64,000 bases of DNA from Antedon mediterranea (taxonomy: Eukaryota; Animalia; Echinodermata). Position numbers and translations under genes: made by a program. The notes below the pieces were generated by a model. The model did not search any database and was not told the origin of the DNA. It saw only the letters and a program-made list of their open reading frames with translations. Shown piece after piece: positions 658-49,449 of the stretch. The stretch covers positions 25,702,912-25,766,911 of the forward strand of contig NC_092675.1 in assembly GCF_964355755.1 (NCBI RefSeq), in the 5' to 3' direction. Positions within the stretch are counted from its first letter, which is position 1. Each line of letters begins with the position of its first letter.

Positions 658-3600
658 CTGAGAGGTTAGCAGGAACAGAGGTTCGTGTTGGAAATAACAA
701 GGCTCCACCGTTTTCGGATAATGCACAATGTGCATTGACTATATCACGAATGGATGCAATCGCAATAAACCCTATAGAGATGTCATGCAACCCACCTATT
801 TCTGGGCGGTATGTCACTGTATATAAACAGATTAGAGGATATCTTACCTTATGTGAAGTAAAGGTTTACACAGGTGAGTACATATTAAATTTGGTAATAA
901 AGCCTTTACAGTTATTGTTCACCATCTATGGAATTTCGACATTGAATTCGTCTAAAAAATCATTAAAAACACATCTTTGTGCCAATTGTAGACCTATGCG
1001 TACAAAACACACCTTTAGAGCCATATGTGGAGGAAAAAAACTAAAATAATACCTACAATTAATTATCTATAGGCCTAATGTATGCTATTTTATTACATTT
1101 TATTACAAAAAAACAACCCGAAAATGTTGGAAAGAAGGAATCCTGCCATCAAACAGCTTTATTTACTAACTGTTAATAATATAACAAACTATAAGAACTA
1201 ACATTGGTTTTGTAGATATTGAAAAACCTGAAGTTGTGTGTCCAGATGATATAGAATTACATGTTGGGAATAATCATCGTTTACATCAAGTTGATTGGAA
1301 TCCTCCTGCAGTTTCTGATAATTTTCATACGGATCTTTCGGCAACCTGTTCTCCATCATCAGATTCTTTATTTCCAGTTGAATTCACCAAAGTTACTTGC
1401 TCAGCAACTGATGCAACTGGAAACAAAGGAAACTGTTCGTTTGTTGTAAATATTGCAGGTCAGGAAACTATTGCTAAAGCTTGGTTCCCACTAGGACGCA
1501 ACACAAGAACGCTTGTGATTGGTCAATTTGCTTACGTTGCGGTAATTACGTCATTGCGTTGCGTCCTAATGGGAACCAAGCTTAATAATGAAGAAAGAAC
1601 TATGATCGAATCTGTAGTTGGGCATAAAGGTACATCTATACAAGTTGTTTGTTTTTTCAGATGATAGGAAACCTGACCTCGTTTGTCCTGAGCATATCAC
1701 GGTGGGAAACAATACTGACCAGTACGAAGATCCAGTAACCTGGAGTGACCCAGCAGTGACCGACAATTTGCATACAAATATATCAGCAACGTGTACACAT
1801 GCATCGGGATCAATATTTGATGTTGGTTCAACTATTGTCACGTGTTCGGCAACAGACGGTACTGGAAATGTGGGAAGTTGTTCATTTGTTGTCCATGTCA
1901 TAGGTCAAACATTTATTTCTAGTAAGCAATACTTGAAACAACTTAACAGTCCTAACTTAGACAATTTCGTATTTATATGTAATGGTAGAAATATAATATT
2001 TAGGCCTATTGAAATACGCAATAGTTGCCACTGTAGACATAAAGTATTACATTATAAAGTTATTTTGTAATTAAATAGTTCGACACATCCCATAACTACG
2101 TCTTACTAAAAGCCAAATTATTACAAATGAAATGTTGACGGCGCAATTTTTGTAACGGTTCCAATCCATCCATGTCGTAACACTTTATATAACGGATCGA
2201 ACGTGATATCAGTCAACAACAGCCAAGCTTCTCAAGTGTCGCGCGCGTGGTTGCTAATACTGCTAAAAAGAACATCAACGTACAAAACTTTGGCATTATA
2301 ATGACATCGCACTCTCAATGGCGTAATAAGAGTGCACTAGAACATTGATTTAATATCATGTGACACACAACCTTTCATTAAAATGACAAAAATATAGGCG
2401 TTGTATAATATTGTTGAACTATATTAATTATATAATTAATTATTATAATGGACATTTGGTTGAATGTCATCATGTTTTATTATGTTGTGTTTAATTATGC
2501 TGTAGGCCTATGTATTGAATGGTAAATGGTCTGTTTGATATTAATATACAAATGAAAATATTTTAGATGATGTACGGCCTGTTCTCACTTGTCCTGGGCA
2601 CATTACCGTTAATGGTGATCAATCCAGGGATCCAATAACTTGGAGTAACCCCACATTGACATATAAAGGTACATTGTCAACGTGTACACCACCATCGGGA
2701 TATGTATTTGACGAGGGGTCAACCATTGTCACGTGCTCGGCTAGAGACAGCAATGGTGAAGTAATAAGATGTTCATTTGTAGTCCATGTTGAAGAGAGAA
2801 TTAATTCAGGTAAGTTATATTATTAATATCACATGACAACATAAATTATAAAAAATGTATTAAATTAAGGACATTCAAATTAAAAAGGTCTTAATAAAAC
2901 ACACATACCAATCACTACATTAGTGAAATATCTTTTTAAAATTTCAATTTTTCTACTTAGGCTTACGTTTAAAGTATAAACACATTTCATAATATTCCAT
3001 TTTAAAAATTAAAAACAAGTTTAAAAATTGGATTTATGTTTACGTTTAAGTTGTTTTTAATTTACAAAAAAAAAAAACGTTTTATTATTGGTAGATCTTG
3101 CTATCGGTATTGTGTGTCCAAGTGACATTACGTTTAATACGGATCAGCCTGTAGTTGTATGGAATGATCCCGAGTTGACAGACAACGTTGGTGGTACTGA
3201 CGTACAGCCAACTTGTAATCCACCATCTGGCGCTACGTTTGAAGTTGGATCAACCAGGGTTACTTGTTTCGCATTTTATCCTATTGTTAACATCAGCTGT
3301 TGGTTTAATGTTGGGAGTACAGAACGTTCTACGCCATTTGCAAGTTAGTAACAGTTAATTACAATTGATGCTTACTGCTAACTCAATTTTCATTAACATA
3401 AATATATCGGTGAGACGTGTCAAAATTTAAATAAAAATGTCAAGTTATCTGGGTCTTCAATAACCTAAATAGATACGATGATAATTATTGTTTGAATTAC
3501 TATTCTTAAAGATCATGCGCAAAGTGCCAGAGGATCAATGGATACCCATTCTCTGTTGTTAGCAGGACTCACGGTCATTATAACGCTTGGTCTTATCGCA

Positions 3601-4658
3601 TCACTTATAGGCCTAATAGTCAGGTAATACTATTTGTTATATTTATTGATAAATGTTGTTTATTTTGAAGACCAAATGCAAATTCTTTGGCATCAAAACC
3701 CCATCTTGGATACGTAGCCAATTCTTCTAACTATGGTTAGCAAGTAACAAATTAAGTATAAACGTTAAAAAGACTGATTTTAGGAACACATCAAAAATTA
3801 AATAAATTGATTAACATGGATATTAATATTAATATAGACGGTACAAAACTTGAAAAAGTAAATAACTGTAAACATTTAGGTGTCTTTATCGATGAAAATT
3901 AAAAATGCATAAACAAATAGATCAAGTGAAAAATAAAGTACTATCAGGTCTGTACTATCCAAAAAAATGCAGCAATATTTTCCCTCAAAATATTCAATCA
4001 TTAATGTACAAATCTATTATAGCCCACCATTTTGACTACTGCAATGTAGTATGGGGTCGTTGTAACCAAACCCTCAAATATAAACTCCAAGTAATCCAAA
4101 ATAGAGCGCCTAAAATAATTACACATAGCCTAAATCTAGGTATCACAGGCGCTCAAAGATTTAAATTGGCCTAATTTAGAAGAAAACCAATATTACAACG
4201 AAGCAGTCGCAATGTATAAAATAATGAATAACTTGACACGATCCTACTTAAGAAACAGGTTCTATGAACGCAAACAAACATATACTACTAGATCAAAAGA
4301 TATTCTAAGTTTACATAAGGCAAACACTGAGTATAAAAAGAAAAGTTTCTCGTATTCTGTGCAAAGCTATGGAATAGTTTAAATGCTATAAACTCAAATG
4401 CAATTACAGCTCCAAATATATATATAATATATTAAAAAAATTATAAATGACCAAAGATAAAATATACTTGAAACTCTATGTTTTTCATGAAATCATTTTT
4501 TTTTTCATAATGTACTGTAAATGATAACTTGTGTAATAGTATAAATAGTTTTGTAGTAAGTAAAGGCCTTGTGAAAAACACCAATATGGTGATTCAAGTG
4601 TCGCATCCGTTTTTAAATAAAGTTCTTCTTCTTCTTCTTATTATTATTATTATTGTTA

Positions 4659-4728
<70 letters not shown>

Positions 4729-4886
4729 GTTAGTATTAGTATTATTATTATTATTATTATAATCTATTTAATGTTAATGACTGATGACTGTTTTATTGTT
4801 TCAGATATCGTAAAAAAAAGAAGAATAAATTTGGAATTAATATGAAAGCAGATGAAGGAACAGTGACATGGGAGCTAATGGAATAA
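658..4886 (+). CDS. F-type lectin-HYRx4-TM receptor, copy 1 (5'-partial; signal and first two lectin exons lie upstream of the window)
   Basis: Exons 658-873 (xERLAGTEVRVGNN...CNPPISGRYVTV...LTLCEVKVY, F-lectin C-half), HYR exons 1216-1458, 1661-1921, 2567-2809, 3095-3343 (P.h.CP..I...V.W..P...DN....TC...SG..F.VG.T.VTC.A.D..GN...CSF.V.V), TM exon 3512-3623 (SLLLAGLTVIITLGLIASLIGLIVR), tail exon 4805-4886 (YRKKKKNKFGINMKADEGTVTWELME*). AG/GT boundaries, consistent frame. Confidence 0.85.
1477..1583. mobile_element. PIF/Harbinger-like MITE (relatives at ~18643-18837, ~33485-33606, ~38789-38915)
   Basis: Terminal inverted repeats AAGCTTGGTTCCCA(C)TAG / CTAATGGGAACCAAGCTT with shared internal CGCTTGTGATTGGTCAATT and TTGCGTTGCGT motifs. 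Confidence 0.72.
3780..4765 (+). mobile_element. Degraded CR1/L2-clade LINE 3' fragment with (TTA)n tail in the last intron of copy 1
   Basis: Disrupted RT C-terminal peptide (LMYKSII..HFDYCNVVWG...KLQVIQNRA..IIT) followed by a (CTT)n(ATT)n microsatellite at ~4622-4760. Confidence 0.8.
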
Positions 4887-4936
4887 TGTTTAATTCAATT
4901 TAAAAAAAATGTTTTTCTAATAGTCTTTTATTATAA

Positions 4937-5751
4937 TTGAATACGTATAATATTAATCATACAGCTGACAGTAATGATTTAAATATACAAATTGGAACCA
5001 GTAAATTAGAACAAGTTGATAGTATAAGGTATCTGGGAGTCGTAATCGATGAAATGTTAACTTGGAAACAAAATACTCAATGTATTAGTAAAAATATTGG
5101 ATATAAAATAACAATGCTAGGTAAAATGGCTAGTAGTTTAAGTAAACCGTTACTAGAAACTCTATATATAAGTACAATTCAGCCTTGTAGTGATTATGCT
5201 ATAACAGTCTGGGGAAATACGACAGAGTTAAACAAAAATATTTTAAAGCGACATCAAAAAAGAGCTGCTCGAATTGTAACTAACAACTTCGATTATATTA
5301 ATGTAAGGGGTGACAACATCATCCAGAACTTATCGTGGCAAACTCTTGAAGAGAAACGAGATTTCTCCCTAGCATGTCTAATGTATAAATGTGTTTACGG
5401 CCTTGCACCAATTAGATTAGTAAATGAAATTGAATTGATTCGCGATATTCACACCCACTTAACACGTGGAGTAGAACATTTGAATGTAACAATACCTAAA
5501 TACACCCTTAGTAAAATGAATTCGTCCTTTAAAGTTGCAGGCGTAAAAATATGGAACAATTTACCAATTAATATTAAATCGGCACCAACAATTACGTCCT
5601 TTAAGGCTAGATACAAATCTCATTTCTTTTCATAAAAAACTGACATGTATTATATTTAATTAAGTTTCTCTTTTGTATATTTTGATTAAGACAGGACCAC
5701 AATGTAAAACAGATACACTGTTATCTGATTGTTTTATCCTGTATAAATATA

Positions 5752-5783
<32 letters not shown>

Positions 5784-5785
5784 AA
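4937..5785 (+). mobile_element. CR1/L2-clade LINE 3' fragment directly after the copy 1 stop codon
   Basis: 232-aa ORF with YLGVVIDEMLTW, LYISTIQP.SDYAITVWG, QKRAARIV, G.KIWNNLP..IK; short 3'UTR and (TTA)n tail to ~5783. Confidence 0.88.
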
Positions 5786-6205
5786 TATTGTAAAACCAAG
5801 GAGATAATAACATTTGATGTACTAGTTTAATTTGCTTACACCAACATTTGAAAAGTAACATTATTGATGCAGATTGTAAAAATAGTTCTGACCAAAGCAG
5901 AAGCAGACAATAAATGATATGTAAATATATATTTGCAATATAATTTGTTGGTTTGGAATATAGATATTTAATTTAATCATCATTGTTCTGTCTTTTTTTG
6001 CTGCTTTGGTCAGAAATATTTGACAATTTTATATTAATTTTAAGTACTCGCATCGATACGCTATTTACATAAATAATAAGTGTTACTTATTATTTATAAT
6101 TTGAGAATATTTCAATGTGAAGAATCTCTCGACTGTTATTTCCATTAATTTACATTTTCATCAGGCGAAACCAATATAATATGATATAATAATATTAAGA
6201 GACGA

Positions 6206-6324
6206 GTTGAACCAAGGCAATCTAACAACCGGACACTGAGCTCGCCTTGTCAAGATCGCAGCCACAGATAAACCATTTGATATCAGGAGCGCAGCATACT
6301 GTTGTTAGATTTCCTTGGTTGAAC
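6206..6324. mobile_element. Short MITE
   Basis: ~24-bp imperfect terminal inverted repeats GTTGAACCAAGGCAATCTAACAAC / GTTGTTAGATTTCCTTGGTTGAAC. Confidence 0.65.
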
Positions 6325-6969
6325 AAATAGGCCTACGTTATATTATTTAAGTGAATCTCAGTTGTTGAAACATGCAGCTCTAAATATGCATTCCTATTAT
6401 AATTATCATTTCACACATGTTTTTTATTACAACTTTATTTAGCAGTTATAACACGAGTGGAAATACTTTAAAACCACTATTTCGCATAACCTTTGTTTAA
6501 AGTATGCTGTAGGACTAACTAATGTACTTGCATACTATGCATGCATAATTCAACAGCCTATGACAATAATTTTTACAGGCAAAGTTGATGGATTAATGTT
6601 TTCGATTAATTTTTGGTATTATGTGACATTAAACATATTCAACCAAATTATTGTAAACAAATATTTTGTATATAGGCCTATCTTTAACAGAAAAACTCAA
6701 ATGATGTTATAAACATGTCGAATATAGAAGATTGGGTCAACCACTTCCCGTTGTACAATCATTAACCGAAGAGTAAAGAGATCAACACTCTCAATAATAG
6801 TAGACCTATTCTTAGAAAACAGATTAACACACGTTCTCACATTCCATCCAATCCTGCATAGTATGTCAATGAAAACGTACGTAAGGACAAATTTCGCGCC
6901 TAATTTGAGATATTTTACTCAACGATAGAAAGTTAAATACATACTTTCTGTACTAATTTTTAACACTTT

Positions 6970-7790
6970 TTTTTTTCTCTTTTGTGGCGTGAACCACCAC
7001 CTTTATTCTTTCATATCATAATTAAATACATTACAAATAAATCAGTAATATCTGTCTTCATATGTTCTTTCTTTAATTATATTGTTTTCCGTTAATATTC
7101 TACATTTTTCTTTATCTTTTTCTGCTCAAAAAAAAAATATCAGTAATTTTTGTAAATTTTAGTTTTTCACATATTGTTTCCAATATTATCCTCCTGCTTT
7201 CATGGTTTGTTATTATTCACATTGTACACAGACAATATACATACCATTTATATACATCTTATAGACATTATATACAAAGATATAAAACAACGTTTAATAA
7301 ATTTATTAGGTACCGGTAACTCTTTTAACATTATATGAGCGTTAGTTTGTTCAGATCTTTAACAATAGACTTAAATACAATCCAAGAGTTTTTACACACT
7401 GGTTTGTTTAATTCAGTTAAAATCTTAATGTTATATATTGAGAAGACAGCAATTGAATATAAGTCATTTTTGTATTCACAATCAGACCCTAAAAGAAGTT
7501 CTCTAAAAGAGCTTCTGCCATTGTCAATATTTTTAAAAATGTTATCTATGTTTGTCCATAAAGTTTTATTTCGTATGCATTCAAAAAACATGTGTTTTTC
7601 GTCTTCAATTACCCCACATAAGTCACATACATTATTCATTTTCACATGCCACTTATGAAGCCTTTGATTAGTCGGAACAATTTTGTTCAACAGCTTGTAA
7701 TTTAGTTGTGCATATTTTTTGTTTTTTTCATTTTTCACTTTTTTTATCCAAACGTCACTCCAATTTATTTTCTGAATTTTTAACACTTAA
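6970..7790 (-). mobile_element. L1/Tx1-clade LINE 3' fragment (zf-RVT region)
   Basis: ORF 7331-7786 has YKLLNKIVPTNQRL.KW....VCDLCG..EDEKHMFFEC, the CCHC motif of L1/Tx1 ORF2; A-rich sequence follows on the minus strand. Confidence 0.75.
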
Positions 7791-8677
7791 TGAAAACCAG
7801 TATAATAATTAGGTTAAGTTAGAAAATTAATTATTGACGATTAAAACAAATAAAGGTTAAACGACTCAAACAGGGTATTTTTCAAGTGTGGACTGGTACA
7901 TACCGTTTGTTGACGCTGAAAATTATCTACAAACAATACGTAATATTACGAGGATTCTTCTCCGTTTACAGTAATTGTTTTTAATTGCTGAATCACGGTA
8001 CACAACTATACATGCATTACTATAATTATTATCAATTACAACGTTAGGCCTAAACTATTAAAAAAAGTTATAAAAATATATAATGTTTTTTTTATACATA
8101 CGTTACTTTTATACATAGTATACGTTTATACATTAATTGCTTGACGGCTATGAATTTGGTTTTTTTCCCGCGAAAACTTTTTGTTTGTTTACTGAAGCCA
8201 CAAAACGGTCTCCTTAAAATTAAGCCCGAACTTTTTTACAAATTACCATAGTACGACACCGATCGGAACTATTATTTCCAAATAAAAAATCGTTATTCTT
8301 CCTCTATGGTTCAATATATACATGTATAAATATTATTCTAGTATGTCATAGTTAGTTGTTTTAATTAGTGTTCCATGACTTTCTCGTCAAAATTAATGTC
8401 TCTCATTGTTGTGCTATGTCAACATAATGTCAATGACGGCGAAATGTCCCCAATAATGGGGATAGATATGCAAACAAGTAACAAGTAAGTAATAGAGAAG
8501 AATATGATTCGAAGAAAATTGTGCGGAGAGATTGAGAGGGGAAAGATCTATACATTCTTTAAAACATTAATTTACACTATTATTCAAACAAGTTACAATG
8601 ATCTTAAATCTATTCCCCCCACCCCACATTATATTATCTAATTTTATCCATAAACTTTTGTAGTAATTATAATCATA

Positions 8678-9837
8678 CTAGATGGTACGCTCGCTTCGCT
8701 CGCGTACCATCTAGGTCGTGCCCACAGATGGTTCTCGAATACACAGTAATTTCAGCGTAACAAAACTGGCGATTTCAAATGTACGTACCGCAGGACTATA
8801 ATACATTGTCGTTTACAGAATCGAATAAATAGACACGATGATTTATGTAGTCAACTAAAATTAGCACCCTGGGAATTACTTCCGAAGGAGAAACTTATCA
8901 CAAAATGAGTCCAAATTTTTGATTTGGACTCATTTAAAGAAACCCAATTTGTGTTTTGTATGTAACATTAGGGTTGAGGGATGGGAAAACGGATAGGTAC
9001 AAAGTGGAACAATTTTTAAATATATTCTTTATCCACTCAGTAACGAAATATTTTTTTCATGTTTTATAGGTCTATAAATAATATACCTCTAAATAAAGTA
9101 AAACATTAATACTTTGTTAAAACTGTCACTGTCATAATCGATTGAAATATCAAAGTACATGTCACGATACACCACTACGGCGTTTATCAGTAATAAAGTT
9201 TATTTGTATATATTTTTATATTACATCTAACAGTATGAACATTCACAGTAAGAAATGTTCGATTCAAATGACGACCAAAAATAGTTAATAGGTATTTACT
9301 GTATTGTCAAAGTATTGCAAGTTTATTCTCAAAGGGCCCATATATTTACCTCCGTATGTGTTAAACCAAGGGCTCATAAATTTACCTACTTGTGTTAAAC
9401 CATGGAGGTATATATTATACCTCCATGGTTAAACCAAACTCTGGGATGTTCCATTCATCGCAAATCAATACATTAATTTGTATAATCGTATATTAAATCT
9501 ATCAAAATAGTATTTTTTTTAGAAAATCGGCCTTTCTTCAACATTATGATGCTGTACTTTAGCTGTTCAACCAGTTTTCAGCTATTAAAAACAATTATCG
9601 TAGGAGGAGATAGGAAAATGCGAAAAACACCCCTATTTGGGGCAAATCGTTGAACCTAAATTCGTTTTAATCGTCAATAACTAATTACCTAACTCAATTT
9701 AATTAGTAAACAGGGTTATGTCAGATGGTTAAAATCAGTACCGAAAGTATGAACCAACTTTATATACCATCGAGGAAAAATTCTATAAATTAACCGAGAT
9801 TTATCGAATTTTGCCCTTACGTAAATTTATATATAGA
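8678..9837 (-). mobile_element. Non-autonomous Helitron
   Basis: Minus strand reads A|TCTATATATAAA at 9837 through CTAG|T at 8678, with the terminal hairpin CTAGATGGTACGC-N11-GCGTACCATCTAG (8678-8714). These are canonical TC/CTRR ends in an AT target. Confidence 0.8.
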
Positions 9838-10032
9838 TTATGATGATATTTGTAACGCTGACAAGATGAAATTTGATCAAATTGGAAAATTTTTGTTTAA
9901 CAGGTGTGTTTATTTTGGTTGAAATTTACACGTTACGTATTCCCTGATGAATACACATTCGCTTATTAAATTATGGAGCTATACATTCATGTTTAAAAGA
10001 ATGTCTTTCGCTGTTGCAAACATTCTTACACA

Positions 10033-13000
10033 ATGTTTGCGTTTGTATACACCATCGTCTGTTTTATGACATTTATGCATATATCGACATGTAGAGTCAT
10101 GTTAACATGCTTCGATACGTTCGAATTAGGTAAGTAATTTTTTTGTCTAACCTAATTTGTGTGCATATATACATAAATATTCGAGGAAATTGTGTAACTA
10201 AACAAAAAAAAATAAGTAATAATAAAATAAACTAGAGGGTACTCCGAGAGTACAAGGCTCCGCCTACTGTAAAATTCACCTACATAAAATGTCTCCGGAT
10301 ATATTTTTTTACAATTTGTTTATTAGCTCTAAATGTAAATAGGCTAACTGCACACTACAAAGTTGTGGATGAGAGTTTGGTATAATGGTTATGTACACAG
10401 CCTCTCACAGTTGAGATCGCTGGTTCAAGTCCGGACTGGACGAAGGGATGGAATTCCCAGACATCGGCGTTCCTATGGTGATTGTAATATCTGCCATTTT
10501 GGACGATATAGCAATATATCATCTCCTGTATGAGCTCAAGAAATGTTTACAATTGATGATATTTTAGGCTGTGTTTGTGGTGTATACCATCAAATAACCG
10601 TAATTTTAAACCTTAGTTTCTATTTTTAAAACTTTGTTTATAGTAGCATCTAGGCCTAATTTAATAATAATAGTGAATCTAATTATTAGTAGGCCGTATT
10701 GTCATAACCATCCCATCATACATTTCGTTTAATTTAAATGCAATTTTCTAGCAGCAATTATTCCACAAAATAATAAATAAATGAAAACAAAAAGCACCTT
10801 TAAAACGGTTGTCAAAATTGTTTAGTGTCAGAGTTGAAACCAGCTACACAAGTTTCAACAGCGTGGTCCGGTTCAGCCTCAAGGGCTGTGGACGGTGGAG
10901 ATTATTTCGGCAGCGGTTCATGCTCGCAAACGGGTAAGTCATATTGCGTATTGCATATTGTTGATGAATGTATTTTCTGTATGAAATAGGCTTAGAAATA
11001 CTTCTAACGTTGTTTTACCAGCATCCATTAAAATATTAACATATTCATATTTTTCAAACTTTTTAAAAATGAGTAAGCCTATATTTTTAAATTTTATAAT
11101 GAAAACTTTGGCTAAATATTTTTATAGGCCTAATCTTAGATTTTATAATCGTCCTTCTCGCCCCAGGTAAACTCTGCTTTCTTTACAACCCATGCAATAG
11201 TGTAAATACCATGCTTAGAAACGATGAGTCTTCAAATGACAATATTTTTCCATTGTCTACAATTCTTCTATTATCACGTTATTGCATGTAGGTTATTTTC
11301 TTTATTTTTCTTATTTTCGTTTGCCTATCTATTTCTTTTATTAAAGGTAGCCTATATACAACGTGGTGGTATGTTGACCTCGAAACGGAAATATTCATTT
11401 CGAAGATTGTTATATTTAACAGAGAAGATTGTTGTTGTAAGATTATATTAATAGTAATTTTAATGCAATTCTCTCTGGGCGGTTTCTTCCTTTTTAAATG
11501 AAATGAAATTAATTTTTCATCTTTTTCTCATTTTCAGATTGTTCAGCGGCGCTTAGAGGCACGCTATATTAAATTATGTTTAAAAGTAGGCCTATTCTAA
11601 GTATTGCATGTGTTTACTAGTCCACAATTGAGAGTGTTGAAAATCACTTAGACCACTGGGGCTTTCGTGGTATTGTTCAAATTCGATTTGATAGCGAGAC
11701 TCGACGTGGTACAGCAGAAGAGCTGAAATATGATTGTTAAGTCTTGTTTTGCATATTTTCAAATATTGCTAGTGCACCTTGGTATAGTAATATAATTGAG
11801 CTCTTTCTTATTTTTGTTTAAGTCGATTCGTTAGCCGGTCTTCGTGTTCTTGTTGGAAATAACAATGTTTCACCATTTTCCGGTAATTCGCAGTGTGGGC
11901 GGATGCTTTCACAATTTGATTCAATCGCAAGCAACCCTATATTAATAACATGCAGGCCACCTATTTCTGGGCGGTATGTTACTTTAATTAAATCAGGTCT
12001 ACGTGACCATCTTTCCTTATGTGAAGTAAAGGTTTACAAAGGTTTGTACATACTTGGTAATAGAACTTTTTTATTTTCTTTTTCGACATCATGAACTGCT
12101 TCATGGCACACATGTAAACTTAATTTGTCTAAAAAAAGCCATTAAAATCACATCTTTCCACCCAGTCAGAGAATCCTATTAATTTCTTAAAATAATAATA
12201 ATAATAGTCTGTTCTTATATAGCGCATATAAGCAGGCTCTCAATGCGCAAAAATAAAAGCAGGAAATATAATAATTGTGATAGTCTAAATTGCACCATGC
12301 AATTATTATTATTGTCATCAATATTGTTATAATAAAATAAACATGTGTATAAAAAATAATATATTTTCGAGAAAAAAAATATAATAAATATATATATTGT
12401 ATTTCTTTATAATAATCTTAATAAAACGAATGGTCGAACAAATGGATGTAAAGTTGTGTAACCAAAAAAATTGCATTAAATTACCGACTGTCGAACTTAA
12501 CAATATAAATAACATTGGTTTTGCAGATATCGGAAAACCTGAAGTTGTGTGTCCAGATGATATAGAAGTAAATGTTGAAAATAATCAGACTTTACATCAA
12601 GTTAATTGGAATCCTCCCGAAGTTTCTGATAATTTTCAGACGGATCTTTTGGCAACCTGTTTTCCATCATCAGGTTCTTTATTTCCAATCGGATTCACCC
12701 AAGTTACTTGTTCAGCAACTGACGCAACTGGCAACGAAGACTACTGTTCGTTTGTTGTAAATATTGCAGGTTGTAACAACATGGATAAAAAGTTTTTTTT
12801 TCAACCTTAATTACTCTCAGGACCCATGGGGAAGTCACATCCGAGCATTTACCTTCTTCAGATTTAAGTTTATTGTTCTGATTCTAATTGCTCATGTTAA
12901 TTGTTTAAGGGTTATTTTTAAAAGCAATTAAAGTTACATAAAACTCTTTGAGAACGTCAGCAACTCATGTTACAATTAGACACAACTGTTTCACTATTTT

Positions 13001-36449: not shown

Positions 36450-37150
36450 CAAAACATCATGCGAAACATGTTACGTTTATTAGATCCCAATGCTTCGGAG
36501 AAATTAATTCGGATTAAAAAAAGATACGTTATTATATAGGCTTATTATATTGATAGAAAACACCTAGGAACACTATTTCTGTATTGTAACGTTTATTAAT
36601 AGGCCATAACTTTTACAAAACAATAACTAAAAACTACTTTATTGCAACCAACTTATAAATGCTTTGGTTTTAATCGAAAATAAACATTACCTTATAAAAT
36701 ATTATGTCTTATTACATTTGATGTGCAATCATTGAGCGTGTTAGATTGATTCGTGAAAATGAAAGTGTTTTTTCTTTCTTAGAAATGACTTTATTATTAC
36801 GTTATTTGACAGTACTTGAAACATTAGGCCTAGTGATGCGGCGTTTGCTAATATTTCCTAGTCGATCATATAGATCAAGGTAATATAAATTAATTAAATT
36901 GGTATTTCATTAACCATACCCAACCCAACAGTTCCAGCACCATTTATGATATTACGCTACTTATTATACCTGGATGACGTAAGACGGAAAAATGAAAGCT
37001 TCAATTGGTTGGCACGGAAGTAATATACGTTCATTGTTATCTTATTGAAAGTTCAGTACCAAAAATGTGTGTATAAAACAATAGGTAAGCCTGTAAATAA
37101 ACATTCCATATTGCTGAAACTATATTTGTTGATAATTACTTAATGAAATA

Positions 37151-40100
37151 ATGTTGTTAAGAATATATATTATCTTAACTTTATTGAAGCTTGTTGAATC
37201 GTTCGTCGACGAATAATTATTCTTATGGTAAGTTGTGCACTTGTGCTATTGATTTATTAATAAAACTAGGAACTCCCTCCCTGGTTCTCGGAATGAAGGT
37301 TTTAGAAGGACATTCTGGCCTGGACGTTTTCGGGCGGTTACCATTATTGAAATGCTTGATATTCATAAAACTAAACCTACTACTAACCTGTTTCACAGTG
37401 TCTTAGATGATTAATAGTATTTTAACGTATAGTGTTTATTGTTTGGTAGGGCCATTATAGGGTGGAGGTGGGGATGCGGAGTTAATTTGAGGAAGGTGCT
37501 TATTCGAGGGATACGTTTATTTTTTTAGTTTTAATAATATGGTAATATTTATAAATAAAAGCCTCTAGATATAAAAAGTGGTAAAAAAGAATAACAAATG
37601 CTTGGTAAATTGTAGACAACAGTCCGATGAAATATACTACAAATAGTATAATTGTGTTATAAATATTATACAATATTGTGTCTATAAATGTGGATGGGCG
37701 TTTATAATATTTATCGGCGATTCTTATTTTAAGTGACGTTTTATTGGCGAGGTGTTCCGGGCCTTTTTTCAAATAAATACCATCCTAATTGGTATAATTA
37801 ATACATTATTCCGCGACACAGTGGGCCGTTTTGGCCAAAGATGGAAGATGTTTTAGACGGCTTGCAACATGGGCAGAAGTATCCCAGGGTCCTAATGGGA
37901 CACAGATAGCGCACAGTATATGCATAAATCCTGGCAGCTTACTCACCAACTCGCCTATTGGAGTTTTACTCTATTTCAAACAAAAGCTCCTATCATCAGT
38001 TCTCCCAATGTAATTGTATTTGTGAGGGCGTGTGGCGCAGTGTTTTGGACGTTCGACTACTGATCGTGAGATCGAGGTTCGAATCCAATTCTCGCCGCAT
38101 TGCTTGAATCCTTAGGCAAGATACTTTACTTACGTTTGCCTCTCCACCCAGGTGTATAAATATGAACCCGGTTAGATCAAAAAGACACAACTTTGCGCTG
38201 ATTACTAGATGCATTATGACAGTATGTTTCCATACGTGTTTGATCCAAAAAATGACTGGGGTAATAATGTTCAGCGCTTAGAGGTTTCACAACATAAATC
38301 CAGGATATTATTATTATTATATACTTATTCCCCACAATATACTCCTATGCTTTATGAATATATTTACTTTGATCTTTATCAATGTACTCTACTGTACCGA
38401 AAATTAAAAAAAATAAATAAAATGGCTATCGCCACCAACGGCCAACTTAATTGAAACCAGGAAAGTTGCAAGGTGAACCCGAAAATTACTTACTACCGCT
38501 TAAAAATCTATGTTTAGCGGTATGTATCCAAGGCGAAGATTTGTCCTGAAACTTTTCCATTGTGCTCGCCTATGTCAGAATTAACCATAATTTATAATAT
38601 ATAAATATCAAATAAAAAAATTATGTGTTTACAGCGCTTTGACTGCTTCTTTTAGACGATATATTTCATTTCATTTATTTATTTCACTTTACAAATATAT
38701 AAATATAAAGTGGAAGAGCCTAAAAGAAAGCAAAGCTTGTGGTGAATAGGCTCCTCAAAATATATAAAAGAAATTGTTTTGTTACTAAAGACGCAACGCA
38801 AGGACGTAGACGCAACGCAAGCGAGTTGACCAATGGCAAGCGGCAGTTTAAATAATTCATCGCTTGTGATTGGGCAAATCACTTAAGTTTGGCTTACGTC
38901 ATTGCGTTGAGTCTTCAGAGGGATTTACATAACATCAATTCCATAATTATCAAAATAGCTGTCTCAACGACATGGCACTAAATATTTCGGTATAATAAGT
39001 AGAAAAAACTCAGTCTTCATTGTGTGGTGCTTGTGCCTCACAACCATTATTTGATTCAAGGTCCATTAAGCACACTTATGGATCCAATGTTAATGCCTGA
39101 TAATGTTGTACATTGACCAAAAGAAAAGATATTTTCACACAGAGCTGCTGGTTACAGGACTAAGAAATGCAACACAGAGTTCAACGCACGGACCAGGTGT
39201 TGCAAATCGAGCAGTTGATGGCGGCAAAAACGAAAACTATTTGCTCATTCCTGCTCCCATACAATTAAGTAGGCCTAATCATACCTTAAACTAAGTAAAA
39301 TTAGGTGATAATTATACAATGTAGGCCTACTTTCAAAATCATTCATTGAGACATACAGAAAGTAACAATACTGATGATAATAGGCCTAACACCTTTTAGC
39401 TTATTTGGATCCACTATATCAATGTACTCGTGTACGAAAAAGTATATTTCAAATGCGCTCAATGGCTGCACACCAAATGTACAATACGATACGATAGTAT
39501 TTATTGTCATTTATTACAAGAAGGTACAAATAAAATTTGGTTGGTTGATTTACATTTCATATAAATACAATAACAAAGAAATTACAGAACAAATGTAATA
39601 CGACATATTATTTTAAAACGATGTTTTAATTTTGGATTAAAACCAAAGGTTACATGATGTCTCTTTCAATTGCGTAAATATGCGACTTATGATTATTAAT
39701 GATTAAAAAGTTCAATCCATCTCTTTATTTGCATTTTTTTAGCACATGAGACAAACCCTTGGTGGTATGTTGATCTCGGATCATCAAGACTTATTGCAAA
39801 GATTGTCATATATAATAGGGATGATTGTTGTGGTAAAAGCTTTAGCATTTTATTTTACAAATGTAAATCCTGCACGCATTTCAGGTCGGCAGCTCAAATT
39901 TTAAAAAAAGGAGACGGGATCCACCCGATTCTCAGTACTGAGATAGATTTATTTTATTATACATATGAATTTAATACAACCCCACTAACTGTGTTTCACA
40001 TGTATATCCTAGTACCATACACCATAAACTAACATTTTATGATACAGTCACCGTGTGTGATACATATGCTGTATTACCAAAAATGATACAGGGCAAATAT

Positions 40101-41860
40101 TGTAGAATATACAGCATTGAGAATCCGATACAGGATCATATCAGCTTGGAATTTGTTATGATTTACAATTTACTATTCTGTCTTTTAGAAGGTCAGTACG
40201 TTAGTGTTTACATACCAAAAATGGAAGCTCAGTCTTTTACTATTTGCGAACTAGAAGCATACATAGGTATTTATATTTTTAGACAATTTAATATACAGCA
40301 CAGAAAAGTTCTTACTATAGGTCACTGACAATGTTAACCCGTAAAGCCGTCGATCCTATTAATATATAATTGCATAGAAGATGATGTGTAGGAAATTGTA
40401 AATAATTTTCTTGAAAAATAGTCATTAATCTCATATCGATAATTGGTTAACATCAAAATTCACTTATCAGATAAATTAAGGCAGTCTTTCAAAAATCCAT
40501 CTATCACATACAGATACAGGGAGCCCTTATGTTTTTTTGTCCAAACGACATTGAGGTGAGCTCTGAAGTGGACCAGAACGTGAATGCTGCTTCATGGTAT
40601 AGTCTTACGGTTATTGACAATTATTTCGTTGACAATCACATAGTAGCCACTTGCTCAAAGCCATCTGGTTCCATATTTGAAGTCGGGTTCACCAAGATTA
40701 ATTGTTTGGCAACTGACCAAAGTGGAAATGAAGGCAATTGTTCGTTTGTAGTTCATGTCAGAGGTTAGATTTTGAGTTTTCTTTATTGTTGATATTGGAA
40801 GATAGTAGACCCTGCGCATACAAAATGGTGGATTAATTTAAATTCTTGCTGTCATTTTATCTATATAAAACATACATATCATTATAATAAAGGTCGACCG
40901 GAATGTTTTCATTCAAATTCAGCATGTTAATACTAGCCAAGTACTACTAAACAAGTTAAAACAACAAAGTCGAATACGGTACTAGTATGTAAAACGTTGT
41001 TTTCTAAAATCAAACGTAAGTACACTACGTCTACGCATTATATCGACACTTGTTTGTTTATGGCGATGTTTTACACTAATTTAAATTTCTACAGTAAACT
41101 AAATTTAGATGACAAAGGGCCTACCCTCACTTGTCCCGAACACATTACCGTGAACAATGACGTTGACCAATCTGAAAATCCTGTAACTTGGAACGAACCC
41201 ACAGTAATCGAAAACGTACATAAAAATATATCAGCAACGTGTTCACATGCATCGGGATCAAATCTTTGACGTTGGTTCAACTAATTGTCACGTGTTCAGC
41301 AACAGACGGTACTGGAATGTAGGAAGTTGTTCGTTTGTTGTCCATGTCATAGGTCAGACATTCCGTTCAGGTAAACACTTAATTAAGATTGTTTAATTGA
41401 CTGAAGTGGTATTTCCATTTAGAACCGAAACAGTACTTCAATCTCCAAACTGTTTCTCAACCTACAATCAGAACGTTTGATGGCAAAATGTTATGGGAGA
41501 AACCTACTGGGGTCTACCTATATCTATTTTCTATTACTTATAATATACGGTGCCTAATATAACATAGTTACATACAGACTTAAGATATGTGTACCTTATA
41601 TTATTTTAAAATAAATGTTAGCAAGATCTTTTCTTCTGTAGATGTCCCTATCGTGATGTGTCCTCATAGCATCTCAACGTGCTCGGAAAAATCCTTGCAA
41701 CCAGTGACATGGAATGATCCAAAGGTGATGAACGATTTTATATCGATTTAGTAGCAACCTGCATACCTTCATCTGGTGATCTCTTTTCACGTGGATCAAC
41801 ATTCAACACAAGTCACATGTTCAGTAACCAATTCATTTGGAAACAAAGGCAACTGTTTCT
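37151..41860 (+). pseudogene. F-type lectin-HYRx3 receptor, copy 6, multiply disrupted and 3'-truncated
   Basis: Signal exon 37151-37227 has an in-frame TAA. Lectin exon ~39143-39264 has a 1-nt deletion and a GT>TT donor. Exon 39743-39832 is intact. Only the 3' half of the third lectin exon remains (~40180-40266). HYR1 40514-40763 is open. HYR2 41109-41370 and HYR3 41642-~41860 are frameshifted. No TM or tail exon. Confidence 0.88.
38024..38320 (+). mobile_element. tRNA-derived SINE in copy 6 intron 1
   Basis: A box TGGCGCAGTG, B box GGTTCGAATCC, body TCCTTAGGCAAGATACTTTAC...CCTCTCCACCCAGGTGTATAAAT, L2-like tail CAGCGCTTAGAG plus (TTA)n. Confidence 0.75.
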
Positions 41861-42116
41861 TTGAGCGAGCATAGTCAATGTTAATGAGTTCAACTACAAT
41901 TATGCCTAAGCCTATGTCAGGGAAGAGTAAGATTAACTCTTCCCTGATTATGTAAACAAGATATCATGCTAACTTGTAAATAATAATAAGGTAAAAAGCC
42001 AATAGAAAAAGGTCAATGTAATAAGACACAATTCATTGTTATTTGGCACCGGAATAAAATCTCCAAACTGTGCCAGTACCAAGTATGTAATGACGTTGTT
42101 TAATAGATATACCGGT

Positions 42117-42222
42117 GATGACGTAACGCGGAATCTCCAATTGGAATTCTTTTACCTTGGCACGGAAGTAATATATATCTGACCATCTTGAAAGTTAAAT
42201 ATCAAGAAATGTGTGTATAAAA
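42117..42222 (+). promoter_or_regulatory. Putative proximal promoter of copy 7 (bZIP, CCAAT, ETS, TATA), conserved upstream of copies 5 and 6
   Basis: TGACGTAA 42119, CCAATTGG, CACGGAAGT 42161, TGAAAGTT, TATAAAA 42216; same order at 36975-37078 and, with changes, at 32615-32734. Confidence 0.6.
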
Positions 42223-42319: not shown

Positions 42320-45300
42320 ATGAAGTTTAGAATATATATTCTTGTAACTTTATTGTCTCTGGTTGAGTCTTTCTTATCCAGAAGCGGCACAAGTTCTTTC
42401 GGTAAGTTGTGCATCCGATTATTTAATAAAAATTGCTTGACTTAACTTTCTTAACGTTTTTTTAGTATCTGATACTTAAGGTCAAGGTGTCACATCCATG
42501 TTGATACAAATCCATCAAGCAAACGCGTAAATCCGCCTAGTGTAATATTAAGTATGATATTGTCAACTTGTATTGCCTTTCGATGTCTTTTCCATACAAA
42601 AAGACAACAACCCTACACAATTTGTTGGTTATCCGCTCTTGGCGGATAATTGGTTATCCGCTCTTGGCGGATAACCCCTTGTTATTGTCAGGATCTTTTT
42701 TTTTTTTTTTTTTTTTTTCGATATTCTTCTTTCTTTCCCCGAATTTTGTTCGCAGCGTATCTCTAATTCTTGCTGACATAACATTGCATAACTTTGTCAT
42801 AAGATTGACCTATAACTTTAGATGTGCAGCCAAGCTTTTCGGTGATTTAGGAGTTGCGCAGCGTAAGTTACGCGCGATTTTATGAATTTCAATGATTGAT
42901 CATAGATTAAAAACCAAAAGTCATTTTCTATTGAAACTTGGTAAAAATTTAAGTCATATTATGCGCAAACTTTCTATGGATTAAAAATGGCATGTTTTAC
43001 ATAAAGTTACGCGCGCACGCGCTTTCAAAATTTCAAAATGCGCAAAATTCATTTCTAATCATTTTTCTACGCGTTTCATGTCATTTTGAGCATTTCAAAA
43101 TTTCCCACGCGTGCGCAAATTTTGTACGCGCGCGTGCGCACGTGGCGCAAAAACATCCCTTTTTTGCTTGATTTTTGTTTTTTCAGCCTTTTCTAGTAAA
43201 TTTATCAATTTTCAATCAATTTCGACTTAAAATCACGTCACACGAGCTCGTAGAATTGGATAATTTGCGCGCGTTTTTGATGAAAAACTTCAAAAATTTG
43301 TCAAAATTAGACCTTTTTTTAAACAGTCATAAATTCTAAACTACATTGTGAACTTTTTTTAAATTACATATTCTGGAAGTAGATGAGTTTTATTTCTTGA
43401 ATCATGCATTGATATGGCTAACCGGACATTGTGACGTCATCGTATGGGCACCCGAATATAAAATATAGGATTTTTTTCTCTTTCGTCATAGCTCGTCGAA
43501 TTTATTAGAGCGCATCTCTACTTATCCGTCTTCAATTTCCCCCATTTCTTTATATTGTCTAAGTTCATCAATTATCTTTCACATGATTTGCCATTTGCAA
43601 AATTGTGATGACGTCATCATGTCCAAAAGCGTCAATTACTTTGGTCACTTATTTTCATCTATTCTGAACTGTATGTAGTAGGTATGTATAGTGTTATTTT
43701 GTATATACTTAGACGTGACACAAAATAGAGGGCACACTAACATTTTTTCAATGGCATAATCGTTTTTCTGCGCGCAATATTCTAACGTATGACGTGCACG
43801 TGGCTTTTGCGCTGCGGATAACCTAACTCGTCCATAGTGACGAGTTCAAGTCTAGTTTTTATTTAGAGCTGGTTTCACGATTTAAAAATGCAAATCAGAG
43901 TTCAACGCATGGACCGGGTGTTGCAAATCGAGCAGTTGATGGCGGTACAAATGGAAACTATTTTGCTCATTCTTGTTCTCATACATGTAAGTACTATAGT
44001 GAACATTAATTTATGAACAATTGTGTGATACCGACCGGGCTCAATCTCTTAAAAGAACACATATTGGACAAAAATCTATCAGTTTTACAGGAGTTAAGTT
44101 ATGGAACAGCTTATTAAAAATTCTTTAAATTTATACTCATTTAAAAATTACTATCAAATATTTATTTGACGAAATGCCTAAAAAGATTTTATATTTTTAG
44201 ATTACTTCCGATTTGTGTTCTTGTAATGCTAATCTTTCACTGTATTAGTCCTATTAATGTGCCTTTTAGTTTTGTAATTATAGTTAAGTTCCATTAGTAA
44301 ATTGATCAACTTCAAACTTCAAACTTATTTCACTATTTACCATCTTCTTTTAAAGTAAATTATTCTTGTTGTTGTTATTGATAACTTCTTATTACTTACT
44401 GTTTTTAAGGGTCTCGGCTTAAAACTTTGTTTATTTAAGTTCCCTTTCCATAACTTTTTGATGACATATTTGTTCATAGTTTTATGGAATACATTGATTT
44501 TAATTGATTTGATTGATTGATTAAATGCGACTTTTATAATAAAATAACTTTAAAATTGCGTATTTTTTCTATTATATCATTAAGTACATGGACGGAAAAA
44601 CCCGTGGTGGTATGTTGATCTCGGATCATCGACAACTATTTCAAAGATTGTCATATATAACAGAGATGACTGTTGTGGTAAGAGTTTTAGAATTTAGTTT
44701 TACTCATGTAATTATTTCTGTATTTATTTAAACGAAAACTAATTCAAAGATTGACATTATATTACAGATATTATATATTGTTTGAAGGTATGTATGGCGA
44801 AATCAAATGTTAATATAACGTTTGCGGTACACCACGTAGGCCTACATTTTAGAATTTAGTTTTTAATAACAAGACTAGTATAGTCAGTAGGCCTACATCA
44901 ATTAAAAAAATAAGATCAACTAAACAAGTTGATGTACATGTTTTACTTGTAGAGGCAAAGGTCAAATTTCAGGTTTACCTTTACAATTATAACAAAACAA
45001 TTGTTCGTTCAATTTTAAGGAGACCGGTTAGATGGAGCCGTTGTGAGTGTAGGCAATGACAATGTTTCACCTTTTAGAGGAAATTCCCAATGTGGATCCA
45101 CAATACGTAGCAGCTCATTGTACAGCCGTCGCATAGAACTACGGTGCCAATCAGAAGGCCAGTACGTTAGTGTGTATGTACCAGGAACGGATGCCCTGTC
45201 TCTTTGTGAACTAGAAGCATACACAGGTGTGTACTATATAAAAACAAACAATTGATTGACAACACGAAAATAGTATTACAAACACAAGATCACAGATCAA

Positions 45301-48300
45301 AAAGATATATTAAAGAAGCTATTTGGATAAAAAAAACCATGACAACAACAAAGAAAGAATAAGGCACATACAAATGATAAAATATTTAACATCTGATAGT
45401 CCCTGAATTAGACTATTGGAGGGCAAACACAACACCCTTAGCAACCAACAACAAATAACCTGTCATTGCCCCAGCGAAACGTAACAATACGTCAAAATTT
45501 CGGCTTACTCAATTACAAGTAATTGATACTTATCTAATAATATTGAACTATTAGTGACGTGATTAACGGAAACATTTTATAGTAACTCATACATCTTTGC
45601 AGACATACAGGCTCCTGAGGTCTTGTGTCCAAGTGATATTGAGATAAGTTCTGATGTCAATCAGAATGTGCATCCTGTTAGGTGGCAACCTCCTATTGTT
45701 ATTGACAACACCGCCCGTGTAGCCATTTGCTCAAAGCCATCTGGTTCCTTATTTGAAGTTGGGTTCACCAAGATTACTTGTTCTGCAACTGACCCAAGTG
45801 GAAATGAAGGCAATTGTTCGTTTGTAGTTAATGTCAAAGGTTAGTATTTAAGAATATTAGTCGCTTTACACAAGCACTGAAAGTTACCGGTAATCATTTC
45901 CTCTGTAAATGTGTAATTTCACTCCTTCCTGGTAAAACACTGCAATGACAACGATTTTCCACTAGACGAATTTGTTCTCGCGAATTGAAAGCGTCAGCTT
46001 ATACGCATGCGTAGAGATGGATTTGGTAGATGGAAAATATATAGGCGTAAGGTTTTATAATTTTCGCACGTCATTACAATATTGGATACTCGACTAGACT
46101 GTTTTTTTTTAAAATTCAGATAAATAGCATCTAATCCTCTGGAGTGTGATTGCTAAACAATTATAATTATTATTAATTATTTTAAGAATGGTACTAATTC
46201 AGCATGCATTTATGACTATTTGGTTTTTTATATCTATAGGCCTACAGACAATTTGTTTGTGGCAAAAATGAGAAATATTAATATACCGTAAAAAAAATAA
46301 ATTAGTAGATGCGTAGTAAAAACACTAAAAACCAACGTAAGTATGGTACTTGCACTTGCACTTGCTTGTGACGTTTTACAATATATTTTAAAACAATGTT
46401 TACAACATACTAAATTTAGATGTCAAAGAGCCTACTCTCACTTGTCCCGAACACATTACCGTGAACAATGACGTTGACCAGTCTGAAAATCCTGTAACTT
46501 GGAATAAACCCACAGTAATTGACAACGTACATAAAGATATATCAGCAACGACGTGTACACATGCATCGGGATCGATCTTTGATGTTGGTTCAACTATTGT
46601 CACGTGTTCAGCAACAGACCGTACTGGGAATGTAGGAAGTTGTTCATTTGTTGTCCATGTCATAGCTCAGATATTCCTGTCAGGTAAATTTTTAATAAAG
46701 GGTTTCCTTTACTCTACTACTATGGAGTGAGTGCAGAATCTGTTTGGGCTTTAGCCTATTCTCATTCCTGGTTATTTTTTTACATTGATGACTGAATAAA
46801 TATTATTATTATTACAGTATTATTATTGTTATTACTCTATTATCATTGGTGTTACTTTTTAGAACCGGAACTGCACTCCATTCTACAAACTGTTTTTTAA
46901 CCTACAATCAGATTGTTTTAACGTGATGGAAGACAACTGTGGAAGTTCCACTCTAAATTATCTTTTATAATACACTTAATTAAATCATACGTCCACTACC
47001 TGATATTTAAATCAAAAACTTCCTTTCTTTTGTAGATATACCTACCGTTATGTGTCCTCACAGCATCTCAGCGTGCTCGGATAAATCTTTGCAACCTGTG
47101 ACATGGAACAATCCAACGGTGGTGGACGCCGTTGATATCGATTTAGTCGCAACCTGCATACCTTCATCTGGCGATCTCTTTGCACGTGGGTCAACACAGG
47201 TGATATGTTCAGTGACCAATTCATTTGGAAACAAAGGCAACTGTTCATTTTTAGTTGATGTTACAAGTCCCAAAGCACCACAGGGTATGTATACATATTT
47301 CTACATAAGTCCTTCTACGTCTACATCTAACCAACAGTCCGCTCTAAATTATAATCATACAGGACGTGTACAACATTCTTTGAGTGTATATATTTCATTT
47401 CATTTTTATTAATTACACTCTGTATGATACAAACAAAAATTGATAACAGAAAACGTGCATGTTCTATTCACTGCAATTAATATGTTTTTTTATTTATTAT
47501 TAAGTTTAATAAAACATATAAGCTCACTGTAGTAATTCTCGTTGAGCATAGGGTTGTTTTGGTTTTTTCTAATAAACCAATCCTTCACTTTATACAGCCC
47601 GAAGCAAACTTACGATATATGAATTTTATCTTTTTCGTTGGCATTATACATCTTAACTTGTTTATAAACTTATCTTTAAAGCTTTAACACAAGATGATAA
47701 TGCGTCTGACGTCACACGTGGCTACCTGATAGCAGCCGTTGCCGTTCTTAGTGTCATGGTATTAATCTTGGTATTAACAAACATCATCATAGCAAGGTTT
47801 GAGAAGTGATTTTCTTTCATTTACCAGAAATAAAAATATAGAGATAAATGACATGTAGATGTCAAAATCAATTATTAAAAAAAAAAAAAATTACGCAACT
47901 GAACTTGCAAGTAAAGGTAAATTATTTTACAGGAAATAAATTGAATGTATTAGAAAAAAAGACATTATTAAAGTAGACGTATGTAACTAAAAAAGCTATA
48001 TGATGAACTAACTTACTACAATTTGAGTGGGAGTAGGCGATATACTATACAGCGATCTTGGCAGTAATTGTGGAACGAACATGGCACAGATGGAAAACAT
48101 AAGAATGTTTTTTCTTGCAATTTCTAATGAATAATAAGTATTATCAAATTGAGCTGATTAAGCGGTAAAAGATACTGTTTTTGGTTCAACAAAAAAGTAA
48201 AACATTTCTAGATTTTTAATCAATACGCCTAAATATTTTATTTCAGATACTATAAACGCAAGTGTGACAGCTTAGCTGGAGGAATTATAATGAAAATGGA

Positions 48301-48325
48301 GGATAACAACGCTTCTTTTAATTAA
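42320..48325 (+). CDS. F-type lectin-HYRx3-TM receptor, copy 7 (~481 aa)
   Basis: Exons 42320-42401 (MKFRIYILVTLLSLVES signal), 43867-43986 (QSST...ANRAVDGGTNGNYFAHSCSHT), 44585-44677 (PWWYVDLG...NRDDCC), 45020-45226 (GDRL...LCELEAY), 45603-45839, 46420-46683, 47036-47284, 47682-47796 (TM), 48247-48325. Total 1446 nt, open frame. Confidence 0.9.
42625..43856 (+). mobile_element. Helentron/HINE-like element in copy 7 intron 1
   Basis: Duplicated 5' palindrome TTGGTTATCCGCTCTTGGCGGATAA (42625-42674), 3' subterminal GCGGATAACC, hairpin ACTCGTC-CATAGT-GACGAGT, then CTAG-TTTTT; CpG-rich interior. Confidence 0.78.

Positions 48326-49416: not shown

Positions 49417-49449
<33 letters not shown>

Follow-up and report, generated by a model that had tools for sequence, protein, structure and literature searches.

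What kind of receptor is encoded by a row of look-alike genes in the crinoid Antedon mediterranea, and what might it recognise? We analysed a window of 64,000 nucleotides of its genome (NCBI RefSeq assembly GCF_964355755.1, contig NC_092675.1, positions 25,702,912 to 25,766,911 of the forward strand; coordinates below are those of the window). Positions 658-48325 hold, on the + strand, at least seven head-to-tail paralogs, four of which are intact, two broken and one cut by the window edge. All seven follow a common plan of a signal peptide, one F-type lectin domain spread over three exons (the head), three or four HYR domains (the stalk), a transmembrane (TM) segment and a tail of 25-31 aa. 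A first-pass annotation made from the letters alone had proposed this architecture, which exon models, Pfam matches and identity to NCBI models bear out. The crinoid family is real, and it is apparently an unnamed variant of the mosaic membrane F-type lectins already on record. Domain shuffling is documented for F-type lectins, as are membrane-bound members.

Layout of the array and its seven copies

Exon ends were placed at canonical AG/GT sites, which gave seven units, all on the + strand. Self-BLAST of the window, which is AT-rich (27-35% GC) and contains zero N, returned repeats between 651 and about 47,800, in blocks that match the exon positions. The HYR exons submitted to Pfam, copy 6 not among them, passed the PF02494 cut-off in 21 of 22 cases, with HYR3 of copy 4 as the single exon below it (19.6 against 21.7 bits), and both second lectin exons submitted scored above the cut-off of PF22633. 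Tested singly in Pfam, two first and six third lectin exons gave no match, and neither did the TM exon. Domain matches across the array exons are far beyond chance. The internal exons of all copies are symmetric phase 1, the TM-to-tail junction being the sole exception, and therefore any exon can be skipped or swapped in frame. An NCBI isoform of copy 3 (P0001) omits lectin exons 2 and 3.

Once spliced, copies 2, 3, 4 and 7 are identical to four separate NCBI models of A. mediterranea. It had been anticipated that automated pipelines may merge the copies into one hyalin-like model; NCBI keeps them separate, though hyalin-like is among the names given (hyalin-like, SVEP1-like or uncharacterized), and the lectin goes unlabelled. 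Because the precomputed Pfam domains of P0177, the model of copy 7, are F5/8-type and HYR only, "SVEP1-like" and "hyalin-like" are similarity labels. The possibility that the copies are joined as one long protein was ruled out by the separate NCBI models, the stops and the likely 3' untranslated regions (UTRs). The array ends on the right with copy 7, where a caveolin gene on the - strand closes it, and on the left it runs beyond the window edge within copy 1; a tblastn search for remnants of more copies found none at 4887-10000 or to the right of 48330. In HYR trees a 4-HYR subfamily (copies 1-4) stands apart from a 3-HYR subfamily (copies 5-7), the same division that had been read from the exon plan.

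Copy 1 (658-4886), of the 4-HYR type, has its 5' end outside the window and is open in its visible part, with lectin exon 3 at 658-873, HYR exons at 1216-1458, 1661-1921, 2567-2809 and 3095-3343, the TM exon at 3512-3623 and the tail exon at 4805-4886; nothing more than 91% identical to it was present among the proteins retrieved. Copy 2 (10033-15945; 588 aa, frame intact, P0002 / XP_071954519.1) consists of a signal exon at 10033-10129, lectin exons at 10826-10933, 11347-11436 and 11823-12041, HYR exons at 12527-12769, 13053-13313, 13674-13919 and 14839-15084, a TM exon at 15395-15557 and a tail exon at 15852-15945. Copy 3 (17957-25274; 580 aa, intact, P0004 / XP_071954520.1) is built likewise from signal 17957-18053, lectin 19444-19557, 20544-20633 and 20932-21147, HYR 21563-21805, 22368-22628, 23261-23503 and 24165-24410, TM 24579-24729 and tail 25193-25274. 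Copy 4 (26072-30690; 573 aa, intact, P0003 / XP_071954523.1) has its signal at 26072-26165, lectin exons at 26309-26425, 26864-26956 and 27178-27393, HYR1 at 27734-27976, HYR3 at 28973-29206, HYR4 at 29867-30112, TM at 30311-30419 and tail at 30603-30690. Its HYR2 is split (28071-28208 and 28444-28587) by a copy-4-specific intron at 28209-28443, placed from the NCBI model and frame logic rather than from reads. An insertion of about 270 bp (28174-28443), of which no second instance occurs within the window, brings the donor at 28208 and the acceptor at 28444, its 5' part is exonised and the frame is kept, so that the event looks like an apparent intron gain. Copy 4 as a dead gene was ruled out by this in-frame intron, and the proposal that every HYR domain is a single exon fails for HYR2 of copy 4.

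In the 3-HYR subfamily, copy 5 (32849-36449) carries a single frameshift, one base missing in lectin exon 1 (33159-33277, 119 nt), as read from the assembly and not from reads. The remaining exons are open, with the signal at 32849-32927, lectin exons at 33694-33786 and 33993-34199, HYR exons at 34500-34781, 35097-35357 and 35466-35714, TM at 35857-35971 and tail at 36374-36449; HYR1 contains an in-frame insertion of about 12-14 residues. Copy 6 (37151-41864) is a pseudogene with frameshifts in lectin exon 1, HYR1, HYR2 and HYR3, a lectin exon 3 without its 5' part, and no TM or tail exon found. Copy 7 (42320-48325; 481 aa, intact, P0177, "SVEP1-like" at NCBI) has signal 42320-42401, lectin 43867-43986, 44585-44677 and 45020-45226, HYR 45603-45839, 46420-46683 and 47036-47284, TM 47682-47796 and tail 48247-48325.

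Read runs were compared on 9900-29800, the region of copies 2-4, with the RNA status of run X1 being a guess. Contigs of X1 begin or end 1-4 bases from exon edges (13051-13312, from 15851, to 18051, from 25189), the rest of each such contig lies elsewhere, and variants of equal depth occur in further exons of that copy. Runs X2-X4 read through introns. Judging from these contig edges, not from exon-exon joints, copies 2 and 3 are likely transcribed and spliced, and their transcripts likely run 0.7-1.5 kb beyond their own stops, with the reservation that contigs cannot show RNA ends. The likely 3' UTR of copy 2 lies at 15946-17441, in one X1 contig starting at the tail exon, and that of copy 3 at 25275-25954, also in an X1 contig. 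A gap of about 270 bp (17441-17710) separates the end of the copy 2 contig from the start of the copy 3 contig. The exonic differences checked in X1 (13253, 15434-15435, 21090, 21109, 21629 and 24651) alter an amino acid in seven of seven cases, one of them in a binding loop of copy 3; they were drawn from 40 of 141 rows, with six copy 4 rows left out, and cross-mapping between paralogs is possible.

Lectin heads, binding loops and exon exchange

Searched with phmmer against PDB, the heads of copies 3 and 7 matched striped bass FBP32 (3cqo; E 1e-38 and 3e-39) and eel agglutinin AAA (1k12; E 2e-20 and 2e-22). The head is a domain of about 140 aa homologous to AAA/FBP32, with PF22633 matches above the cut-off, which places it in the F-type lectin family, and the likeness extends to the His-Arg-Asp-Arg motif, the vicinal cysteines and the calcium motif. 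The fucose motif has been defined as H-x(about 26)-R-x-D-x4-R/K (PMC5712786; for this and the other papers cited, our statements refer to the portions of text available to us). The triad is complete in four of the five complete in-window heads, those of copies 3, 4 and 7 and that of copy 5 read through its break; in copy 2 the His and the last Arg are replaced. Among three Antedon heads from outside the window, introduced below, one has the full triad (P0005), P0006 has Asp changed to Asn, and P0016 is without the His. Both heads compared from the crinoid Anneissia japonica have the triad, one carrying Asp to Glu. The cation motif (hydrophobic pair, Asp, Gly), the Ser49 equivalent, the Cys-Glu and the vicinal Cys pair were found in all five complete in-window heads, except that copy 4 has Ser for the Gly of the cation motif. 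As to the F-type jelly-roll fold, an AlphaFold model from 6 sequences was weak (mean pLDDT 60.7, residues 35-67 below 50), and a fold search with it returned generic tandem beta-sandwich chains only (TM score about 0.2). On the evidence of these residues, the heads with an intact triad are likely to bind fucose.

Eel agglutinin served as the reference for mapping five binding loops, whose limits are approximate and of our own choice. Identity among the eight Antedon heads is 0.38 in the loops (39 columns) and 0.62 in the framework (100 columns; p 8e-6). In four within-subfamily pairs, which are not independent, the proportions of nonsynonymous (pN) and synonymous (pS) differences are 0.44 and 0.46 in the loops and 0.19 and 0.35 in the framework, and two independent pair sets agree; dN/dS over the head is 0.42-0.77. 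The head framework is under purifying selection, and the binding-site loops are hypervariable and free to change. Positive selection on the loops is not supported, since pN is about equal to pS, and was rejected as a reading. The idea of diversified recognition therefore survives as far as the lectin heads are diversified, but not as positive selection.

The exons of a copy differ in synonymous divergence. Among copies 1-4, pooled dS is lower in HYR1 (0.17) and HYR4 (0.11) than in the head, HYR2, HYR3 and the TM-tail part, which range from 0.48 to 0.76. HYR1 and HYR4 together show 7-14 synonymous differences in 125-140 codons, and the other three exons 43-49 in 152-179; the synonymous change in HYR1/HYR4 is about one third of that in the other exons in six of six pairs (p 4e-7 to 2e-4), which are not independent and for which the HYR1 and HYR4 grouping was chosen after the dS values had been seen. 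The introns flanking these two exons are mostly at background divergence. Exon-limited gene conversion would be the likely explanation of the homogenised HYR1 and HYR4. The array as a whole shows birth and death with two subfamilies, as had been claimed from its intact and dead members: copies 2, 3, 4 and 7 are intact, copy 5 is frameshifted and copy 6 dead. In the family as a whole, seven or more intact genes persist at dS values reaching about 1-2.

Relatives, tails and known receptor systems

Relatives were drawn from the best 150 of 23,816 matches of a representative search, mostly multi-HYR proteins, and from 120 of 191 matches of a profile search. Three more Antedon genes (P0005, P0006/P0015 and P0016) have the same plan, and P0102 and P0178 of A. 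japonica show the lectin, three HYR and TM plan. The contigs of P0005, P0006 and P0016, and that of the more distant P0017 described below, have the same length (31,698,884) as the contig of the window's genes. Our own profiles found both domains in at least 16 of 279 stored proteins: 11 Antedon records including isoforms, 4 from Anneissia and 1 from the hemichordate Ptychodera flava. As these counts come from the matches listed, the taxonomic range may exceed two crinoids and a hemichordate. In the stalk tree, seven Antedon and two Anneissia proteins lie on opposite sides (99/96), which is consistent with separate expansions.

In P0006 and P0016, the signal and head are nearer to copies 2-4, and HYR1 and the TM-tail part are 80-82% identical to copy 7. 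Approximately unbiased tests, with groups named after the earlier trees and copies 1, 5 and 6 left out, reject the placement of their heads with copy 7 (p 9e-5) and of their stalks with copies 2-4 (p 5e-4). Since both trees pair the two proteins, a single real swap followed by duplication seems a better account than two bad models. These comparisons suggest that P0006 and P0016 join the head of one subfamily to the stalk of the other. More distant proteins combine the domains differently. P0152 of Ptychodera has a lectin, six HYR domains and then, where the array proteins have their TM and short tail, a GPS motif (adhesion-GPCR or PKD/REJ type). P0017 of Antedon has EGF, a degenerate F-type lectin, six HYR domains, a TM and a 60-aa tail with two matches to the pattern of the immunoreceptor tyrosine-based inhibitory motif (ITIM), and its head is without the triad and apart from the array heads in the tree; P0008 is an isoform of P0017 that ends before the TM. 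In Anneissia, P0245 carries an HYR stalk and a SEFIR domain (PF08357), and P0107, of 3326 aa, combines one F-type lectin with HYR repeats and 14 matches to C-type lectin.

The array had been likened to a Siglec/KIR-style cluster. Paired receptors of that type have ITIM or immunoreceptor tyrosine-based switch motif (ITSM) tails in their inhibitory members and a charged TM residue for an activating adaptor. The array tails have a basic start, and ITIM, YxxPhi and dileucine patterns were found in none of the six in-window tails; ITIM was likewise found in none of three tails of Antedon paralogs from outside the window and none of two from Anneissia, so that only the distant P0017 matches. No charged TM residue was present in the six in-window TMs or in any of the 14 TMs scanned, and Pfam found no immunoglobulin V/C2 domain in P0004 and P0006, only HYR and F5/8-type. 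Like the array, CD33-related Siglec and KIR clusters are arranged in tandem, place their recognition domain distally on beta-sandwich spacers, and evolve by birth and death and by gene conversion; the array differs in having no Ig domains, ITIM or charged TM residue, and in its ligand class. The comparison thus stands for the tandem cluster, pseudogenes and exchange, and a Siglec/KIR-style mechanism was ruled against by the ITIM-less tails and uncharged TMs.

Other systems share parts of the plan. SVEP1 has vWA, pentraxin, sushi and EGF domains, and hyalin is a secreted chain of HYR only; the Pfam domain lists of the array proteins differ from these, and a TM is present. Hyalin, EBR1-like proteins and SVEP1 have HYR repeats in common with the array, seven of them together with a TM in EBR1_5 (PMC5521101), but none has the lectin-HYR-TM plan. 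AAA and FBP32 are soluble proteins of single or tandem domains, whereas each array protein bears a single head above an HYR stalk and has a TM; in F-type lectins likewise, paralogs differ in their loops and some isoforms are without the triad (PMC5712786). Drosophila furrowed and CG9095 combine an F-type lectin domain with a TM, as the array does (PMC9954269, PMC5712786). Like the array proteins, selectins and furrowed are type I membrane lectins with a repeat stalk, selectins also with a short tail (PMC9954269), and the selectin-type layout of distal lectin, repeat stalk, single TM and short tail is present in the array proteins. However, selectins and furrowed use C-type lectin, EGF and CCP domains (PMC9954269), which are absent from the array by Pfam, where the stalk is HYR, and the genes of the array proteins, unlike theirs, stand in an array subject to turnover. 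Oyster bindin F-lectins resemble the array in intron recombination, alternative splicing and triad-less variants (PMC5712786), but have 1-5 tandem lectin domains, few genes and positive selection, in contrast to one head per gene, a stalk and a TM. By their sequence features, the array heads are assigned to the F-type lectin family, and the proteins are not members of the selectins/furrowed, Siglecs/KIR, SVEP1 or hyalin.

HYR is not named as a partner domain of F-type lectins in the available text of the reviews PMC5712786 and PMC12221842; "hyalin" is absent from that of the former, and "hyalin", "HYR" and "echinoderm" from that of the latter. The literature searched, which covered few subscription papers, contained no description of a lectin-HYR-TM family and no paper with "F-type lectin" and "hyalin" together, and the partner-domain census of Bishnoi et al. 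(2015) may list HYR. The view that no named family has this architecture thus apparently holds in the literature searched, and the layout is known in kind from selectins and furrowed/CG9095.

Candidate functions and other features of the window

The anatomy and the evolutionary pattern of the array are observed; binding, ligand and tissue are inferred. With a probability of about one half, we consider that the array proteins are single-pass membrane tethers for fucose-bearing glycans, most likely microbial, without signalling by their own tails. The His-Arg-Arg triad would engage the 4-OH of fucose, as it does in eel agglutinin, and the variable loops would tune the preference among underlying sugars. 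The HYR stalk would be a spacer, clustering of the proteins in the membrane would supply avidity, and the basic juxtamembrane tail might anchor the protein to the cortex or aid uptake, not recruit phosphatases. Renewal of the repertoire would proceed through duplication in tandem, gene conversion at the level of exons, skipped exons and the death of genes, and also through head-for-stalk swaps at the phase-1 intron behind the lectin.

Several points weigh against such tethers. The microbial ligand, although most likely, is argued by analogy, F-type lectins having roles in innate immunity and self/non-self recognition (PMC5712786). Since copy 2 and P0016 are without the triad His, not all heads would bind fucose canonically, and since loop pN does not exceed pS, the loops are explained equally well by relaxed constraint and by diversifying selection. 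Furrowed mediates homophilic adhesion via its stalk (CCP) domain and not the lectin (PMC9954269), so adhesion by the array proteins could reside in their HYR stalk, a view with which the copy 3 isoform without a lectin would agree. About ten loci are a small family for an immune repertoire, and the swapped P0006 and P0016 are known as NCBI models only.

Binding to fucosylated self surfaces (egg coat, sperm, epithelium), in self-glycan adhesion or gamete recognition, is unlikely, but has points in its favour: the diversification, intron recombination, splicing and triad-less isoforms of oyster bindin are paralleled in the array family, and the HYR-bearing TM protein EBR1_5 of urchin is under positive selection (PMC5521101). 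Bindins, however, are acrosomal tandem-lectin proteins without an HYR stalk, and loop pN in the array is not above pS. We also think very unlikely a Siglec/KIR-like paired system in which the short-tailed copies would serve as decoys for, or activating counterparts to, an inhibitory relative with a long tail. The tandem cluster with death, conversion and swapping would suit such pairing, as would the P0017 tail, but short ITIM patterns match by chance, the in-window copies have neither ITIM nor charged TM, and the P0017 head, triad-less and grouped apart, would therefore not share the fucose ligand with the array.

Crinoids are suspension feeders, and lectins of the tube feet or mucus epithelium might catch fucose-rich particles or substrate. 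Non-signalling tails and a plan seen in only two crinoids among the matches listed agree with this use in feeding or attachment, but a literature search on echinoderm adhesive proteins with HYR gave a single, unrelated paper, and we regard this use as highly doubtful. Largely neutral turnover, in which one or two functional membrane lectins are accompanied by redundant duplicates drifting to loss, would account for two broken copies among seven, the lost triad of copy 2, the head dN/dS, loops at the neutral rate and the retroelement pieces around copy 1; it is very unlikely given a framework under purifying selection, the number of intact genes kept at such dS and the two retained by Anneissia. 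A reading wider than the membrane tethers, and one we hold to be quite unlikely, is a modular crinoid glycan-receptor repertoire, in which F-type lectin heads would be reshuffled onto HYR stalks and tails by phase-1-intron recombination, in short-tailed tethers, ITIM-tailed and GPS-cleaved receptors, to form a self/non-self system that reads fucose, a counterpart to Siglecs assembled from unrelated components.

Among invertebrates, surface lectins commonly occur in tandem arrays specific to one lineage. Little has been described of the recognition molecules of crinoids (the single characterised lectin found in our literature searches is reportedly a C1q-type protein), and the family adds a membrane-bound F-type lectin architecture to them. 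It offers about ten small heads that can be expressed and whose binding loops vary naturally, triad-less ones included; they make the diversification of invertebrate glycan recognition testable. The database labels hyalin-like and SVEP1-like hide a lectin receptor family. What is known of lectin mechanism is unchanged unless paired signalling is shown.

Further features were noted within and beside the array. Retroelement-like fragments, recognised by eye with no Pfam match, lie at 3800-4400 in the last intron of copy 1 and at 4937-5632 behind its stop, together with a (TTA)41 run at 4638-4760 and a zf-RVT match at 7334-7786. Very high-copy short repeats occupy copy 3 introns at about 18640-18840 and 22000-22320, where the summed depth of run X2 exceeds 100,000. 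Copies 5-7 share a conserved block some 200 nt ahead of the ATG (about 32610-32680, 36970-37030 and 42115-42180), which contains words that we take to be CRE-like, CCAAT-like and ETS-like. The caveolin gene at 49041-50800 is tail-to-tail with copy 7 (PF01146, E 9e-18 on 49041-49280), and farther right, exons of a REXO1/EloA-BP1-like gene at about 58000-64000 on the - strand (PF15870, E 6e-12 on 60864-61079) run off the right edge of the window.

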